Shown: positions 4,528-30,813 of the stretch, piece after piece
Numbering within the stretch: the stretch's first letter is position 1
Layout of the letters: every line of letters starts with the position of its first letter
Source: Wigglesworthia glossinidia endosymbiont of Glossina morsitans morsitans (Yale colony)
Lineage (GTDB): Bacteria > Pseudomonadota > Gammaproteobacteria > Enterobacterales > Enterobacteriaceae
Direction of reading: 5' to 3'
DNA: 32,000 bases
Assembly: GCF_000247565.1 (NCBI RefSeq)
Contig: NC_016893.1
Coordinates: 180,001 to 212,000 of the forward strand
Notes under the pieces: generated by a model
Told to the model about the DNA's origin: nothing
The model's input: the letters and a program-made list of their open reading frames with translations, nothing else
Database searches by the model: none
Program-made: the position numbers and the translations under genes

Positions 4528-5900
4528 TTATTTATCAATAAATTTTATTTTTAATTTGCTTCCAGTTAACTGAAGCTGTTGAATGAAATAATTTTTTAAA
4601 TAAGTAATATAATTAATCGATAAATATTTAGTTTTACTACCGTGTATAACAAGAATTAAAGGATTACATCCACCAACATGTGCATATTTTAATTTTATTT
4701 TTTTATATTTTACAATAGGAATCTGTTTTTTAACGAGTGCTTGATATAATATACGAGTTAGTTGCGATGTTTTAAAGAAAGATGTTCGGCTTTTATAAGT
4801 TCTATCTACGGATTTAATTAAATTATTTATTCCATAAGATTTTTTCGCTGATATACAGCGTATTTCGACAGATTTAAAAAAAGTAATTCGGCGCTGTATA
4901 TTTTGTTTAATTTTTAAATAATGATTTTTAGAAATTAAATCATACTTATTAATTGCGATTATTAAAGATTTACAATTATCTATAACTATTTTTAATAGGC
5001 AAAGATCTTGTTTTGTAATACCAATAAATGGATCAATTATTAATAATACAATGTCTATTTTTTTAATGATATTAAATGTTTTTTCTAAAATTAATTTTTC
5101 TATATTTTTTAATTTATTTTTTTTAGATATTCCTGCGGTGTCAATAAATAAATAACTTTTTTTTTTCTTGTGCACATTGCACACAAGCTATCTCTTGTAG
5201 TACCTGCAATGTTTGATACAGATGCTCTTTGTGCATTTAATAAAGAATTCATTAAAGTAGATTTTCCAGAATTTGGACGTCCAAGAATAATTATTTTAGG
5301 TAAATTAAAATACTTTTTTTTCACATCAAAAATATTTTGTTCAGTATTATAATCATAATTTTTTTTATTTTTATTTTTTTCAGTGCTTGATTTAATTAAA
5401 AAATATTCTGGATATAAAATAAGATTAAATAATTTATTTATTTCTAATTTTTTTTTACAATTTATTAAATAAACTTGATTCTGAATTCCAAGAAAATTAA
5501 TTTTTTTTAAAATTTCATTTTCATATTTTAAAAAACTTAAATTAATAATAACGAAAAACTTTTTTTTAATTTTTTTTAAAAAATGTATAGTTTGCAAAAA
5601 ATTATCAAAAGTAGTGTTAAATTCATATTTAATAATAAAAAAAATAATATGTGATTCTTGAATTGCAAGCACAGATTGTTTATTAAATTTATATTTTTTT
5701 GAAAAAAAATCTCCCGAATCTATTGCAGGAGTATCAATAAAAATGAAATTACATTTTTTTCGCGTACAAACGGCGTACTGACGATCACGTGTAAAATTTG
5801 GAATGCTAGAAATTAATGCAATATTTTTTTGTATCAATTGATTAAAAGTAGTAGATTTTCCCGAATTTTCTTTTCCAATTAAAGCAATAATAAGATTCAT
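4528..5900 (-). pseudogene. der: ribosome-associated GTPase Der/EngA, split into two overlapping ORFs (5109..5900 and 4528..5184) by a frame change inside an A10 tract
   Basis: The upstream ORF (263 aa) carries GTPase domain 1 (GKENSGKST) and the start of domain 2 (GRPNSGKSTLMN ... GTTRDS). The downstream ORF (218 aa) carries FIDTAGISKK (G3), NKYD (G4) and the KH-like C-terminus. Total length is about 480 aa, against about 490 aa for E. coli Der. The position after bamB matches E. coli synteny. The two frames switch at the T10 run 5157..5166. Confidence 0.85.
5157..5166 (-). other. A10 homopolymer (T10 on the + strand) at the der frame switch; candidate transcriptional-slippage site
   Basis: The mRNA sense reads ACA AGA AAA AAA AAA GTT in the upstream frame and CAC AAG AAA AAA AAA AGT TAT in the downstream frame. 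One extra A joins the two frames. Confidence 0.8.
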
Positions 5901-5935: not shown

Positions 5936-7126
5936 TTATAGATTAAAAGAATATATTTTCCCAGATTTTGCAATTATTAGTAAGTAATTTTTAAATATAT
6001 TCATAAAAAATATATTTCCTGATATATTAATTTTTTCTTTTTTTATATACTTTCTATTATTAATATTAATTTGATATACGTATTTATTTTGATCTAAAAA
6101 AATGAAATATTTATGATATATAGCAAAATGCCTATAATTAGGTCGAATTAGTTTTTGATTATAAATCCATACATTTTCTCCAGTATGTAAATTTATAGCG
6201 ATGATTTTATAGTATTGATCTATTGCATATAAATTATTTTTATCATATAAAATTTTAGATATATATATAGATTTGTTTATCCATAGTATTTTTCCTGATT
6301 CTGAATTTAAACAAAACAAATATCCATTTTTTGAAATAACATAAATTTTATTATCTAAAACAATTACATCTTTTTTTTCATTTATACTATAAAATAAATT
6401 ATTTTTTTTATGGTCAATATAATTAATAGATTGTTCCCATATAGTTTCTCCATTATATACGGATAAAGCTATTACGTTTTTTTTATTATCTATTAAAATC
6501 ACTTTATCTGAAAAAATTTTTACAAAAAATATATCATATTTATATGTATTAAATACTTCATTATTTATTTTTTTTGTCCATTGTATACTGCCGTCTATTT
6601 CATTTAATGCTTGTAAAAACCCATTGTTAGTATAAATTATGAGTACTCCATAATTTGTTGATTGTGGTATAGACAATATTTTTCCTAAAGTTTTTTGTTT
6701 CCAAATTAATTTTCCATTATTTATATCTAAAGCATATATTATTCCATATTCAGATCCCATGTATATATAATTAATGTCACTTGAACTAACACCTATTCCT
6801 CCTGCAAGTTTTATATTTTTTTTATGTGGTATAAATAGATTGTTTAAATTTATTTCCCAAATTTTTGTTCCAGTATATATATTTATTGCTTTCACTGTGC
6901 CGGTATAATTTGCAAAAAATATTTTTTCATTTTTATTTGCTGGAATTAATTGAGAATATTTCATATTTTTGAAATCTAAAAAATTAGTCCAAGATTTTTT
7001 TATTTTATTTGTGTTAAAATTTTTCTGTAAAGATAAATCTTTTTTATGAATATAATTTATTTCAGAAGTAACATGAAAAAAATTTTCAGTGTTTAAGTTG
7101 TCCATAATTATATGACAAAATTTCAA
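5936..7126 (-). CDS. bamB: BamB (YfgL)-like beta-propeller protein, lacking a recognisable lipoprotein signal peptide
   Basis: 396-aa ORF with a repetitive PQQ-like beta-propeller pattern. Examples are GTVKAINIYTGTKIWEINL, GIIYALDINNGKLIWKQK, GFLQALNEIDGSIQWTKK and GYLFCLNSESGKILWINK, colinear with E. coli BamB. It sits between yfgM and der as in E. coli. It has a TTG start at 7126, and a TAA lies two codons upstream. Confidence 0.8.
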   Translation of the reverse strand: MKFCHIIMDNLNTENFFHVTSEINYIHKKDLSLQKNFNTNKIKKSWTNFLDFKNMKYSQLIPANKNEKIFFANYTGTVKAINIYTGTKIWEINLNNLFIPHKKNIKLAGGIGVSSSDINYIYMGSEYGIIYALDINNGKLIWKQKTLGKILSIPQSTNYGVLIIYTNNGFLQALNEIDGSIQWTKKINNEVFNTYKYDIFFVKIFSDKVILIDNKKNVIALSVYNGETIWEQSINYIDHKKNNLFYSINEKKDVIVLDNKIYVISKNGYLFCLNSESGKILWINKSIYISKILYDKNNLYAIDQYYKIIAINLHTGENVWIYNQKLIRPNYRHFAIYHKYFIFLDQNKYVYQININNRKYIKKEKINISGNIFFMNIFKNYLLIIAKSGKIYSFNL

Positions 7127-10111: not shown

Positions 10112-10609
10112 TTAATTTTTATCATTAACTTTTTTAAAATCTCTTTTTATTTTTTTTTCAACTTGTAAAGTTTTAATATTTAAAATATCTTGATAATTAA
10201 TACGATAACTTTGCCACCACCAGGTGCCTATAAGTATAACGATAATAAAAATAGCAAGCCATGTAATTTTAACGAGCCATATATCTTTTTTTTTATATTG
10301 CTTTAATGATTTAATTTGACTAGTAGCTTTTATTCTAGGAAAGGAACTTTGCATTTTATTATTTATTAATGAAAGTTCTGTTTTAGGTAATTTTACTAAA
10401 TTTGCATATGCTCGAATATATCCGTATAGAAACGTTTGTGATACGTGAGGATGTTCTGCATCGTTTTCTATGTTATCTATTATTGATACTTTTAAACGTA
10501 AAATTTTAGCAATTTCTTTTTGACTTAATCCCAAATTTTCACGTGCTTTTTTTAAAGATTTTCCGATAGTATTAGAAGTTATTTGATTTTTTTTTTCTCC
10601 AATATTCAT
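10112..10609 (-). CDS. rodZ: cytoskeleton protein RodZ, truncated form (HTH + TM, almost no periplasmic domain)
   Basis: 165-aa ORF with an N-terminal XRE-type HTH (GKSLKKARENLGLSQKEIAKILRLKVSIIDNIEND) followed by GYIRAYANLV, as in E. coli RodZ. It has one TM segment (IWLVKITWLAIFIIVILIGTWWW). Synteny between rlmN and ispG supports the call. Confidence 0.85.
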   Translation of the reverse strand: MNIGEKKNQITSNTIGKSLKKARENLGLSQKEIAKILRLKVSIIDNIENDAEHPHVSQTFLYGYIRAYANLVKLPKTELSLINNKMQSSFPRIKATSQIKSLKQYKKKDIWLVKITWLAIFIIVILIGTWWWQSYRINYQDILNIKTLQVEKKIKRDFKKVNDKN

Positions 10610-18002: not shown

Positions 18003-18356
18003 TTAAAAATTTAGTCCAAATTTTCTAGCTGCTTCCGCTAAAGCTTTAACACGACCATGATATTTAAATCCAGAACGATCAAATGCTATTTTTGTAATAT
18101 TTTTATTTAAAGCACGTTCTGCAATTTTTTTACCAATTATTTCAGCAGCTTTTTTATTTCCTGAATTTTTCAATATGCTCATAATTTTTTTCTCTAAAGT
18201 TGAAGCGCTTGCTAATACATACGAACAATCAGGAGATATAATTTGCGCATAAATATGTTTAGAAGTACGATGTATTAAAAGTTTTGATATATTTAATGTT
18301 CTAATTTTTTTACGTGTTTTTGTCGCTCTTTTAATGCGCGCTATTTTTTTTTTCAT
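18003..18356 (-). CDS. rplR: 50S ribosomal protein L18
   Basis: 117-aa [18 protein letters not shown]...[26 protein letters not shown] matches E. coli L18. Confidence 0.97.
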
Positions 18357-18910: not shown

Positions 18911-19303
18911 TTATTCTACATAACAGATAATTTCTCCGCCCAGATTAAGATTTCGTGCAGCTTTATCAGTCATGATCCCTTTAGAAGTAGAAATAATAGC
19001 AATTCCCATGCCTGATTTTACTTGCGGCAAAGATTTTTTATTTTTATAAATTCTTAATCCTGGAGAACTAATTCTTTTAATTTTTTCTATTACTGGAGTT
19101 CCTTTAAAATATTTAAGTACTAATTTTAATATAGGTTTTATTTCATTTTTTATTTCATATGATTCTATAAATCCTTCATTTTTTAATACATTAGCAATTG
19201 ATATTTTTGAATTAGAAGATGGCATATAAATAAATTTTTTTTTTGAAATTTGTCCATTTCTAATACGAGTAAGCATATCTGCAATTGGATCTTGTAAACT
19301 CAT
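18911..19303 (-). CDS. rpsH: 30S ribosomal protein S8
   Basis: 130-aa [21 protein letters not shown]...GGEIICYVE is almost identical in pattern to E. coli S8. Confidence 0.97.
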
Positions 19304-22912: not shown

Positions 22913-23191
22913 TTAGCGCTTTTTTATTTTTTTATCAGCAGAATGCCCACGATAAGTTCTAGTCGGTACAAATTCGCCTAATTTATGTCCTACCATTTCT
23001 TCTCCTATGAAAATAGGGACGTGTTGTTTGCCGTTATGAACTGCAATTGTCATTCCGATCATAGATGGAAATATAGTAGAACGCCGTGACCATGTGCGAA
23101 TCGGATTTTTTTTTTCAGATGTTTGCATTTTTTCTATTTTCTTTAATAAATGAAAATCTATAAATGGTCCTTTTTTTAAAGAACGAGGCAT
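22913..23191 (-). CDS. rpsS: 30S ribosomal protein S19
   Basis: The true start is ATG 23191 ([20 protein letters not shown]...), giving 92 aa as in E. coli S19. The ORF-track start at 23344 would add 51 non-homologous residues that overlap the 3' end of rplB. Confidence 0.95.
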
Positions 23192-28550: not shown

Positions 28551-29525
28551 TTAAAGATTATGTTTCAGAGTTTTTTTATGTATTGTTGGGATAGAAATAA
28601 TTAATCTTAATCCTTTCAAAGGACCTTTGTCAATTTGAATATTTCCATTATGTTGAAGAATAACTTTTTTTGAAATTGTTAATCCTAAACCTATACCTCT
28701 ATTTTCAGAACGATTATTATCAATTGTGTAGAAAGGCTGAAAAACTTTTTCTCGTATATTTTTTTTAATTCCCGGACCATCATCGTCTACGATAATAACA
28801 ACCTGACTGTTTCGCATATAAAAAGCAACAGAGACTTTTTTATTAGAATATTCTATTGCATTTCTAATAATATTTTCTAGTGCACTTTCTAATGCATCTA
28901 AATCTCCTATTATATAACCTTGTTTAGGCAAAGAAATAATTTTTAAAATTTTTCCTTGTTTATCCGCTTCAAATTGCGAATTTACTAAAACATTATTCCA
29001 TAATGTACAAAGTTGTAATAAATTTTTAGAATTTTCTATTTGAATATGATTTCTTGATAAAATAAACAAATTTTTAATTATGTAGTCTAATCTATTTATT
29101 TCAATTTCAATGCGAGATGCTTCGAATACATCTCCGTATCGTCTTCTTATTAATGCTGTAATTAATTTTAATCGTGTCAGAGGTATACATAGCTCGTGCG
29201 AGATATCAGATAATAAGCATTTTTGCATATTTTCAGTGCAATCTAATGCATATATCATATTGTTAAATTTAATACCAATAGATAATATTGATTTTGGTCC
29301 ACGTTCTAATTCTGGAAATTTTTTACGATTACCTTTTGCAACTAAATTGATAGCATATTTAAATTTTTTTGTTATCTTAGATAAATTCCAATATATCCAG
29401 AATATTACAAGAACGTGTACTGCAATAATAAAAATAAAAAATTCAGTTGGATAATTTAAGATTAAATTAAAAAAGTTTGAAGAAATACTTTTAGTATTAA
29501 TAAAATATATTTGATTTTTTTGCAT
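28551..29525 (-). CDS. cpxA: sensor histidine kinase CpxA, N-terminally truncated (TM2-HAMP-DHp-CA only)
   Basis: 324-aa ORF. It has one TM (FFIFIIAVHVLVIFWIYWNL), a HAMP region (FPELERGPKSILSIGIKFNNMIYAL, compare E. coli HPELEAGPQEFLAAGASFNQMVTAL) and the H-box LLSDISHELCIPLTRL. It also has the N-box LESALENIIRNAIEYS, G1 DDDGPGI and G2 GIGLGL. It is colinear with E. coli CpxA from about residue 138 onward. Confidence 0.9.
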   Translation of the reverse strand: MQKNQIYFINTKSISSNFFNLILNYPTEFFIFIIAVHVLVIFWIYWNLSKITKKFKYAINLVAKGNRKKFPELERGPKSILSIGIKFNNMIYALDCTENMQKCLLSDISHELCIPLTRLKLITALIRRRYGDVFEASRIEIEINRLDYIIKNLFILSRNHIQIENSKNLLQLCTLWNNVLVNSQFEADKQGKILKIISLPKQGYIIGDLDALESALENIIRNAIEYSNKKVSVAFYMRNSQVVIIVDDDGPGIKKNIREKVFQPFYTIDNNRSENRGIGLGLTISKKVILQHNGNIQIDKGPLKGLRLIISIPTIHKKTLKHNL

Positions 29526-29873
29526 ATCATGTATTATATATACAAAATTAGATTTAATTCTACAATTTAAGTTATTTTTTGATATATAAATGTAAATTAT
29601 ACTTACAATATAACATTTAATTATGTTTATACTATAATAGTATACTTTTTTATATAAAATAAAAAAATAATTTTGTGCATAATATTTTTTATAATATTAA
29701 ATATTTTTTTTAAAAAATTTTGAATTTCTCATAAAAATGTATGCGAAAAAATTTATAAAAATAATTTATAAAAATCTAAAACTTCTAATAAATTTTACAT
29801 TTTAAGTATTAACTTAAATTTATCATTTTATAACATAAATAACATATATAAACAAAAAATTAAACATGATTAA
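29526..29873 (-). pseudogene. cpxA: eroded 5' portion of cpxA (TM1 and periplasmic sensor region), in frame with the downstream cpxA ORF but interrupted by six stop codons
   Basis: In the same frame as cpxA, an ATG at 29867..29865 lies 6 nt after the cpxR stop. It opens MFNFLFIYVIYVIK and then TGA. Further in-frame stops occur at 29820, 29814, 29802, 29766 and 29697. A hydrophobic relic IIFINFFAYIF lies around 29733..29765, and the last 57 codons (29526..29696) are stop-free. Confidence 0.55.
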
Positions 29874-30569
29874 TTAAGTGGCAGATACCATTAAATATCC
29901 TTTGCCTCTAAGTGTTTTAAACCAAGGTCTTAAATCTTTTCTTGGAGGAAGTTTTTTTCTTAAATTAGAAATGTGCATATCAATTGCTCTATCAAAAGGA
30001 GTTAATTTTTTTCCCAAAACTTCTTGACTTAAATATTCTCTAGATACTACTTGACCTAAATTTTGTGCTAATAAGAATAATAACGAAAATTCTGTACCTG
30101 TTAAATCTAAATTAATATTTCCAAAGCACGCTTCTTGTCTTCCTGGATTGAGATTTAATAAATCAACAAATACAGATGATTGTTTACCGATAGTTTTTTG
30201 AGCAAACCAATATGAACGTCTTAAAATTGCCCTAATACGTGCTATTAGCTCGCGATCGTTAAATGGTTTTGTTAAATAGTCATCTGCTCCCAGTTCTAAT
30301 CCTAGAATACGATCTAATTCGCTGCCACGTGCAGTTAACATAATAATAGGTATATGATGCTTTTTTTGGCGAATTTCTTTTAAAGTATCTATTCCATTTT
30401 TCTTTGGCATCATGATATCTAAAAGTAACAAATCGATTGCATTATTCAATTTAGAAAGTGCTTGTTCTCCATCATATGCTACCTGTATTTCAAATCCTTC
30501 TAATTCTAATAGTTCTTTTAATAAATCAATCAATTCATGATCGTCATCTACCAAAAGTAGTTTATTCAT
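29874..30569 (-). CDS. cpxR: envelope-stress response regulator CpxR (OmpR family)
   Basis: MNKLLLVDDDHELIDLLKELLELEGF...LLLLDIMMPKKNGIDTLK...IMLTARGSELDRILGLELGADDYLTKPFNDRELIARIRAILRR...LTGTEFSLLFLLAQNLGQVVSREYLSQEVLGKKLTPFDRAIDMHISNLRKKL...PWFKTLRGKGYLMVSA is nearly identical to E. coli CpxR. I prefer ATG 30569, which matches the E. coli N-terminus MNKILLVDDD and has AGGGA about 8 nt upstream. The ORF-track ATG 30575 adds 2 residues. Confidence 0.95.
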   Translation of the reverse strand: MNKLLLVDDDHELIDLLKELLELEGFEIQVAYDGEQALSKLNNAIDLLLLDIMMPKKNGIDTLKEIRQKKHHIPIIMLTARGSELDRILGLELGADDYLTKPFNDRELIARIRAILRRSYWFAQKTIGKQSSVFVDLLNLNPGRQEACFGNINLDLTGTEFSLLFLLAQNLGQVVSREYLSQEVLGKKLTPFDRAIDMHISNLRKKLPPRKDLRPWFKTLRGKGYLMVSAT

Positions 30570-30813
30570 ATACATTTTCCCTATTATACATAATTAACGC
30601 ATTATAATATTTTATTTTCTTTAATATTGAAAATTTATATCAAATTAATAATTTTTTATAATTTACATAAATTAATTAAATATATAAAATATAGAACGTA
30701 TAAAAGTATGAGAATTTACAGGTTTAAAAAAAAATAAAATAAATATTAAATATAATAAAAAATATATTATATATAATAATATATTTTATTCAAAATTTTA
30801 ATTAAGTAAAAAA

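Follow-up and report, generated by a model that had tools for sequence, protein, structure and literature searches.

In the AT-rich obligate insect endosymbionts Buchnera and Blochmannia, some genes carry a single-base insertion or deletion (indel) in a long poly(A) run and are otherwise intact, and the reports on them, which cover dnaX, dnaG, pth, and other genes (Tamas et al, 2008; Wernegreen et al, 2010; Williams & Wernegreen, 2010), describe frameshifts that are common to several species, are not followed by decay downstream and include information-processing genes among those hit. Corrected transcripts of such frameshifted genes are given there as 12–50% (PMC5009743 citing Tamas et al, 2008; PMC3017870). 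In Citrobacter rodentium tssM, Shigella mxiE, and Thermus dnaX, which are accessory or regulated cases each described in a single species, RNA polymerase realigns on an A run and a functional longer product results. The ribosome can also change frame on such sequences, as in the programmed −1 frameshifting of E. coli dnaX, where the slippery heptamer A_AAA_AAG is accompanied by an upstream Shine–Dalgarno (SD) sequence and a downstream hairpin, and A runs of at least 11 are known to promote ribosome sliding (Koutmou et al, 2015; PMC4363877). Here, we describe the der (engA) gene, encoding a ribosome biogenesis GTPase, in a 32,000-nucleotide stretch (hereafter the window; NC_016893.1, positions 180,001–212,000) of the genome of Wigglesworthia glossinidia, the symbiont of the tsetse fly Glossina morsitans (lineage WGM). 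The der of WGM was confirmed to be one gene lying in two reading frames and split at a poly(A) tract, and full-length Der is probably made mainly through transcriptional slippage at this tract.

The traits of the Buchnera and Blochmannia cases listed above recur in Wigglesworthia der, from the AT-rich obligate endosymbiont and the information-processing gene to the single-base indel in a long poly(A) run that is shared among relatives without decay of the downstream part. The indel falls in an uninterrupted A/T run of about nine or more with both flanks open and homologous to Der, as in frameshifts of the type described by Tamas et al (2008). The precedents differ in having cDNA evidence and in belonging to other genera, slippage having earlier been argued to be absent from Wigglesworthia. 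Unlike tssM, mxiE, and Thermus dnaX, der is an essential housekeeping gene in which the break has been kept across a symbiont radiation. In the literature searched, no mention of der or engA was found in connection with poly(A) frameshift rescue, in Wigglesworthia or elsewhere.

The whole der locus spans 4528..5900 on the minus strand (coordinates are window positions throughout), and its length of 1373 nucleotides is one less than a multiple of three. Two minus-strand open reading frames (ORFs) occupy it, 5900..5109 with 263 amino acids and 5184..4528 with 218 amino acids, as stated in a preliminary description of this DNA that took them for the two halves of one der gene. The upstream ORF, referred to as the N frame (5109..5900; 263 codons and a TAA), encodes GTPase domain 1 (GD1) with its G1 motif GKENSGKS (5853..5876), the linker, and the G1 and G2 motifs of GTPase domain 2 (GD2), namely the P-loop GRPNSGKS (5259..5282) and the switch I motif TTRD (5190..5201). 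It had been described as ending at TTRDS; in fact it continues with TRKKK and an out-of-frame tail of 15 residues (VIYLLTPQEYLKKIN) up to the TAA at 5109..5111. The downstream ORF, referred to as the C frame (4528..5184), is the second half of der, and its coding part 3′ of the tract (4528..5156) runs from the G3 motif of GD2 (DTAG, 5131..5142) through the G4 motif (NKYD, 4939..4950) and the KH-like domain (about 4540..4773) to the der stop codon at 4528..4530.

The tract itself is A10 in the mRNA sense (T10 on the plus strand) at 5157..5166 on the minus strand, and it is here that the frame breaks and that recoding is proposed to occur. The crossing of the frames within T10 and the N-frame reading ACA AGA AAA AAA AAA GTT were verified in the sequence. 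Because both frames are open together only in the zone 5112..5187, which is bounded by a C-frame TAG at 5188..5190 and the N-frame TAA, any change of frame is confined to these positions. The zone is narrower still in Wgp, the symbiont of G. palpalis gambiensis (L002), in which a C-frame TAA lies directly against the start of the tract. In the window, the C frame remains open for 219 codons and the remaining reading frames are full of stops. A random single-base change in the C half would make a stop in about 6% of cases, and thus the open C frame is not due to chance.

The consequences of restoring the frame agreed with the expectation that one additional A, or the loss of two, would rejoin the halves. 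Addition of one A gave a 457-amino-acid product (...TTRDSLCAMCTRKKKSYLFIDTAG...) and removal of two As gave an in-frame product of 456 amino acids. When searched with the NCBIfam profile for ribosome biogenesis GTPase Der (TIGR03594), the repaired protein scored 356 bits, which is above the cut-off of 306.7, whereas the halves alone scored 169 and 183 bits over profile positions 2–227 and 218–431, respectively, and both remained below it. The Pfam domains found on the repaired protein were two copies of MMR_HSR1 followed by KH_dom-like (PF14714) at residues 377–454. Its best match in the PDB was E. coli Der (3j8g_X, E = 1.4e-74), with which it was colinear over residues 4–455, and the alignment across the junction was gap-free with GTTRDSLCAMCTRKKKSYLFIDTAG on the window side. 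The predicted colinearity of an A11 message with E. coli Der and the spacing of 15 residues between the RD of G2 and the IDTAG of G3 were both right by this alignment. The AlphaFold model of the repaired protein was confident, with a mean predicted local distance difference test score (pLDDT) of 83.5 and a predicted template modelling score (pTM) of 0.71. In this model, the tract-encoded K246–K248 form the turn of the β2–β3 hairpin of GD2, the strands of which are residues 239–245 and 248–254. The predicted tryptic peptide of full-length Der is SYLFIDTAGISK and that of the truncated product is VIYLLTPQEYLK.

Relatives of WGM that encode an N half only were then compared at the level of their contigs; two of them, of 263 and 264 amino acids, came from a protein search and one more from a cluster look-up. 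The preliminary description had proposed a comparison of tract lengths among related der genes, and these lengths were 10, 11, 11, and 13, all of them out of frame. The window sequence, which comes from a Sanger genome, reads CAAG-A10-GTTATTT at the site. L009 (SRR14633898, a 417-kb contig), with about 90% amino acid identity to WGM, reads CAAG-A11-TTATTT; L001 (SRR5590064, 3389 bp), with about 75–79% amino acid identity, has A11; and Wgp (SRR21669497, Illumina, >1400×) reads ATCTAT-A13-TTATTT. A further contig, L010 (SRR5590063, 2712 bp), also has A11 and is 100% identical to L001 over 2686 bp, being a second run of the same lineage. The locus is one base short in all four frameshifted lineages, and in each of them one added A joins the halves as ...KKKNYLF[I/V]DTAG. 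The lineages differ by a G/A substitution that follows the tract and, in Wgp, by 3 nt of length, and these differences retain the break. In the loci of the relatives, no other A/T run is as long as the der tract; the others do not exceed 9 where der has A11, or 10 where it has A13. The uninterrupted nature of the A run was also considered as a sign of selection and was dropped, the ratio of AAA to AAG codons in the neighbouring genes being 248:7.

The L001 and L010 contigs, which are short, come from consecutive runs and span the convergent der/pckA pair, may be RNA-seq assemblies, perhaps of the G. pallidipes bacteriome project PRJNA387614, the project being a guess from their date and numbering. 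If they are RNA-seq assemblies, der would be transcribed through both halves and the majority message would retain the frameshifted A11.

The closest full-length homologue in the protein search was the Der of W. glossinidia from G. brevipalpis, with 456 amino acids and 50% identity. The gene of this symbiont (L003) is in frame and has no long run at the site, where it reads AAT AAA GAA AAA ACT TAT, and the DNA alignment placed a single 1-nt gap at the tract in the other four sequences relative to it. The most likely and parsimonious explanation of these sequences is a deletion that occurred once, in an ancestor already separated from the brevipalpis lineage, and that would have passed to the morsitans-type and palpalis lineages.

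The WGM genome derives from Sanger shotgun sequencing (9.4×), and the other A/T runs of the window served to judge how faithfully such runs were read. The window has 30 A/T runs of at least nine, 28 of which lie within genes, and 27 of these 28 are in frame, so long runs have not been under-called systematically. Four of the in-frame runs are A10 like that of der, and they are found in rodZ (10587..10596), rplR (18344..18353), rpsH (19235..19244), and rpsS (23106..23115). Because four assemblies from two platforms (Sanger and Illumina) agree and the two runs of one lineage are identical, the break is not a sequencing artefact, and as judged from these sequences the one-base deletion in the WGM der tract is real. 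The preliminary description had left slippage rescue and a homopolymer sequencing error side by side; the recurrence of the same break in four independently assembled lineages removes the error, and RNA polymerase slippage stands as what we infer.

Selection on the two halves was estimated from pairwise ratios of nonsynonymous to synonymous substitution rates (dN/dS) calculated by the Nei–Gojobori method among the four frameshifted lineages. The C half had dN/dS values of 0.15–0.25 (Fisher P 3e-9 to 6e-14; dS 0.24–0.97), the N half evolved faster (0.23–0.41), and the values for the neighbouring pckA were 0.13–0.16. The C half showed zero internal indels and zero stops in the four lineages, with about 166 positions differing between WGM and Wgp. 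With such dN/dS values and neither stops nor indels, der is not a decaying pseudogene, and the plain-pseudogene alternative raised in the preliminary description does not hold. Furthermore, in the C frame of Wgp, the TAA at the tract is followed by 89 codons with no ATG, GTG, or TTG, the first start being at der nucleotide 1005. These 89 codons hold DTAG and NKYD and are conserved (dN/dS 0.33–0.43, P ≤ 0.012), and because they have no start codon of their own, they can be reached only via a frame change inside the tract. Der is described as essential for 50S maturation (PMC4245960), and a second der gene was not found by the protein search. These results together suggested that der is clearly still in use in these symbionts.

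In the mechanism that we propose, unedited decoding of der would yield the 263-amino-acid truncated product, which has GD1 and only the P-loop and switch I of GD2, and full-length Der (GD1-GD2-KH) would be made whenever expression gains one register at the tract, as would happen in a fraction of events. Most likely, RNA polymerase would slip backwards on the T-run template and thereby produce A11 (or A14) and less often A8 messages. The slipped messages would read ...TRKKKSYLFIDTAG..., with a variable number of lysines in the turn of a surface hairpin, and judging from the model, a variable lysine count at this β-hairpin turn should be tolerated. Transcription errors at A/T runs are dominated by single-base insertions and rise exponentially with run length in E. 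coli as well as in Buchnera (PMC5574713), and RNA polymerase slippage is favoured because the event needed in der is this same +1 change. We infer from these lines of evidence both that recoding occurs and that it is transcriptional, and its efficiency likewise.

Several observations weigh against slippage by the polymerase. The 32-kb window has 27 in-frame genic runs of 9–10 A/T, some of them in ribosomal protein genes, and therefore efficient slippage, by polymerase or ribosome, would impose a substantial error cost on the genes that hold these runs. Baranov et al (2005; PMC1088944) found A/T runs to be equally frequent in coding and non-coding DNA of W. glossinidia and took this to mean that transcriptional slippage may be absent from this organism. 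In Buchnera, Traverse and Ochman (2017; PMC5574713) found zero transcription errors that restored a reading frame. The A10 of WGM is also the shortest tract among the four lineages. In addition, a −1 ribosomal route gives an identical protein, and sequence and proteomics alone cannot discriminate between the two.

That ribosomal route accepts the same real frameshift and places its correction on the ribosome, either as a −1 slip of two tRNA-Lys on A_AAA_AAA or as sliding on the unedited poly(A); we consider it a credible but distinctly less probable source of most of the full-length Der, and both routes may contribute. Its product, ...TRKKKSYLFIDTAG..., would be identical to that of the A11 message. 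The zero frame AGA AAA AAA AAA GTT puts an X_XXY_YYZ heptamer, A_AAA_AAA, in register in all four lineages, so der has a Lys–Lys slippery heptamer in the zero frame with −1 as the needed frame, as in E. coli dnaX. E. coli ribosomes slide on iterated AAA codons robustly at A11 and weakly at A9–A10 (Koutmou et al, 2015), and three of the four lineages have A11–A13; the argument of Baranov et al (2005) against RNA polymerase slippage in Wigglesworthia points the same way. The elements that stimulate the dnaX shift have no counterpart in der. A downstream stem-loop or pseudoknot was not found (minimum free energies −1.9 to −6.2 kcal/mol; z-scores +0.8, +1.3, +0.8, and −1.1), a conserved downstream RNA structure was not found either (alifold −1.6 kcal/mol with 0 compensatory pairs), and a search for Rfam frameshift elements gave zero matches. 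An SD-like GGAG or AGGA was not seen at the expected distance on inspection of the aligned 30 nt upstream of the tract, where nothing is conserved between Wgp and the others. Slips without stimulators tend to be inefficient, the precedents documented in endosymbionts are transcriptional, and the cost to the 27 other long genic runs would apply to ribosomal slippage as well. In dnaX, moreover, the shift leads to a shorter second product, whereas in der it is needed for the only functional product.

The correction could also be placed in the DNA, replication slippage in a polyploid symbiont maintaining a minority of in-frame (A11) copies while the assemblies show the majority length. Long homopolymers are hypermutable through replication slippage (PMC3017870), and the tract length does vary among the lineages (10, 11, and 13), but all four consensus sequences, Sanger and Illumina, are in the same wrong frame and the observed length changes, as noted, retain the break. 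In-frame copies that were frequent and fitter would be expected to have been fixed in at least one lineage, and we regard this explanation as improbable. Still lower is the likelihood that der is a plain pseudogene or that the true tract is one base longer than assembled. Homopolymers are classic error sites, and Rio et al (2012) listed 11 pseudogenes in this very genome, six of them with frameshifts of only one or two indels, suggesting that transcription or translation may restore function at homopolymeric tracts. Against the artefact stand the concordant assemblies, the identical duplicate runs and the in-frame A10 control runs; against the pseudogene stand purifying selection on the C half that is similar in strength to that on pckA, the lack of stops and indels over dS values of up to about 1, and the essential nature of Der together with the single copy found. 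No cross-lineage conservation or dN/dS argument was made for der by Rio et al (2012). The N half has been deposited as a protein, its 263 amino acids are longer than their pseudogene criterion of less than half the homologue, and der may be off their list. We assign the lowest probability to two separate polypeptides, in which the C half would start independently at a GTG or ATG just upstream of the tract and reassemble non-covalently with the N half. C-frame starts do lie 3–6 codons 5′ of the tract in the window (GTG at der nucleotides 717 and 726), L009, and L001. The split would cut GD2 between switch I and the β3/G3 strand, and at least in Wgp, a split Der is ruled out by the TAA abutting the tract and the absence of a start in the 89 conserved codons. 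A promoter scan around der gave 30 hits against 37 ± 6 in shuffled sequences and no terminators, and it has no bearing on an internal promoter for the C half.

Beyond the making of full-length Der by polymerase slippage, it was considered that the frame break has been selected and not just tolerated. The poly(A) would then be a programmed recoding site that was retained, and even lengthened to A11–A13, across the morsitans-plus-palpalis radiation, and it would set a low dose of full-length Der, dependent on the fidelity of polymerase or ribosome, beside an abundant GD1-only product. We regard this extension as speculative and rather unlikely. What is specific to Wigglesworthia der is that the break is conserved in at least four lineages next to an intact outgroup, and that it stands in tension with the earlier inference of no slippage in this genus.

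The two GTPase domains of the repaired Der differ in their motifs. Those of GD2 (GRPNSGKS, TTRD, DTAG, and NKYD) are canonical, whereas GD1 has G1 (GKENSGKS) and G2 (FTRD) but shows DTPA in place of DxxG at G3 (5724..5735) and NLSF in place of NKxD at G4 (5532..5543), both on the minus strand. In an alignment of 37 Der sequences, the lysine of NKxD is conserved to at least 90%, and the degeneracy was present in all five Wigglesworthia sequences, with DTPA or DTPS at G3 and NLS, NLN, or NLD at G4. On these motifs, GD1 may have lost guanine specificity or catalysis. The β2–β3 hairpins of the two domains carry near-identical motifs, VCTRKKC in GD1 (residues 44–50; minus strand, about 5751..5771) and MCTRKKKS in GD2 (residues 242–249; minus strand, about 5155..5177), and the GD1 motif has two lysines only and no long A run.

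The gene order of the window is aroB-aroK / pckA / der-bamB-yfgM-hisS-ispG-rodZ-rlmN-ndk, followed by the alpha, spc, and S10 ribosomal protein operons. The bamB (yfgL) gene at 5936..7126 separates yfgM from der in the window, as it does in L009 and Wgp, and is not at that position in the symbiont of G. brevipalpis (L003 2504..3001); yfgL was listed as unique to WGM by Rio et al (2012), which agrees with the presence of bamB in the window. The rodZ ORF (10112..10609, minus strand; 165 amino acids) covers only positions 1–147 of the 334-position RodZ profile, and Wgp has a rodZ-like gene of 164 amino acids (L002 296..790). The ispG gene of Wgp has an A10 run near its 3′ end (L002 1928..1937), and its ORF of 377 amino acids is 17 residues longer than the 360 amino acids of the window and runs into the beginning of hisS, a further possible case of a frame change that depends on tract length, here at the end of a gene. 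Farther along the window, cpxA (28551..29525, minus strand) is N-terminally truncated, its 324-amino-acid ORF corresponding to positions 146–461 of the 463-position CpxA profile, and cpxR (29874..30575) is full length. In the 349 bp between them (29526..29873), no ORF of at least 20 amino acids able to encode the periplasmic sensor region was found in any frame.

Thus, in at least four lineages of tsetse symbionts, the sole copy of der, a gene indispensable for 50S assembly, is not readable in a single frame. This finding adds Wigglesworthia, and a core ribosome biogenesis gene, to the conserved poly(A) frameshifts of Blochmannia and Buchnera. It either contradicts the earlier inference that slippage does not occur in Wigglesworthia or else points to the ribosomal route. 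With an intact outgroup and tracts of 10, 11, and 13, these symbionts provide a natural system for weighing transcriptional against translational recoding. Annotation of der as a 263-amino-acid protein or as a pseudogene misstates the gene content of a symbiont that is targeted for tsetse control.

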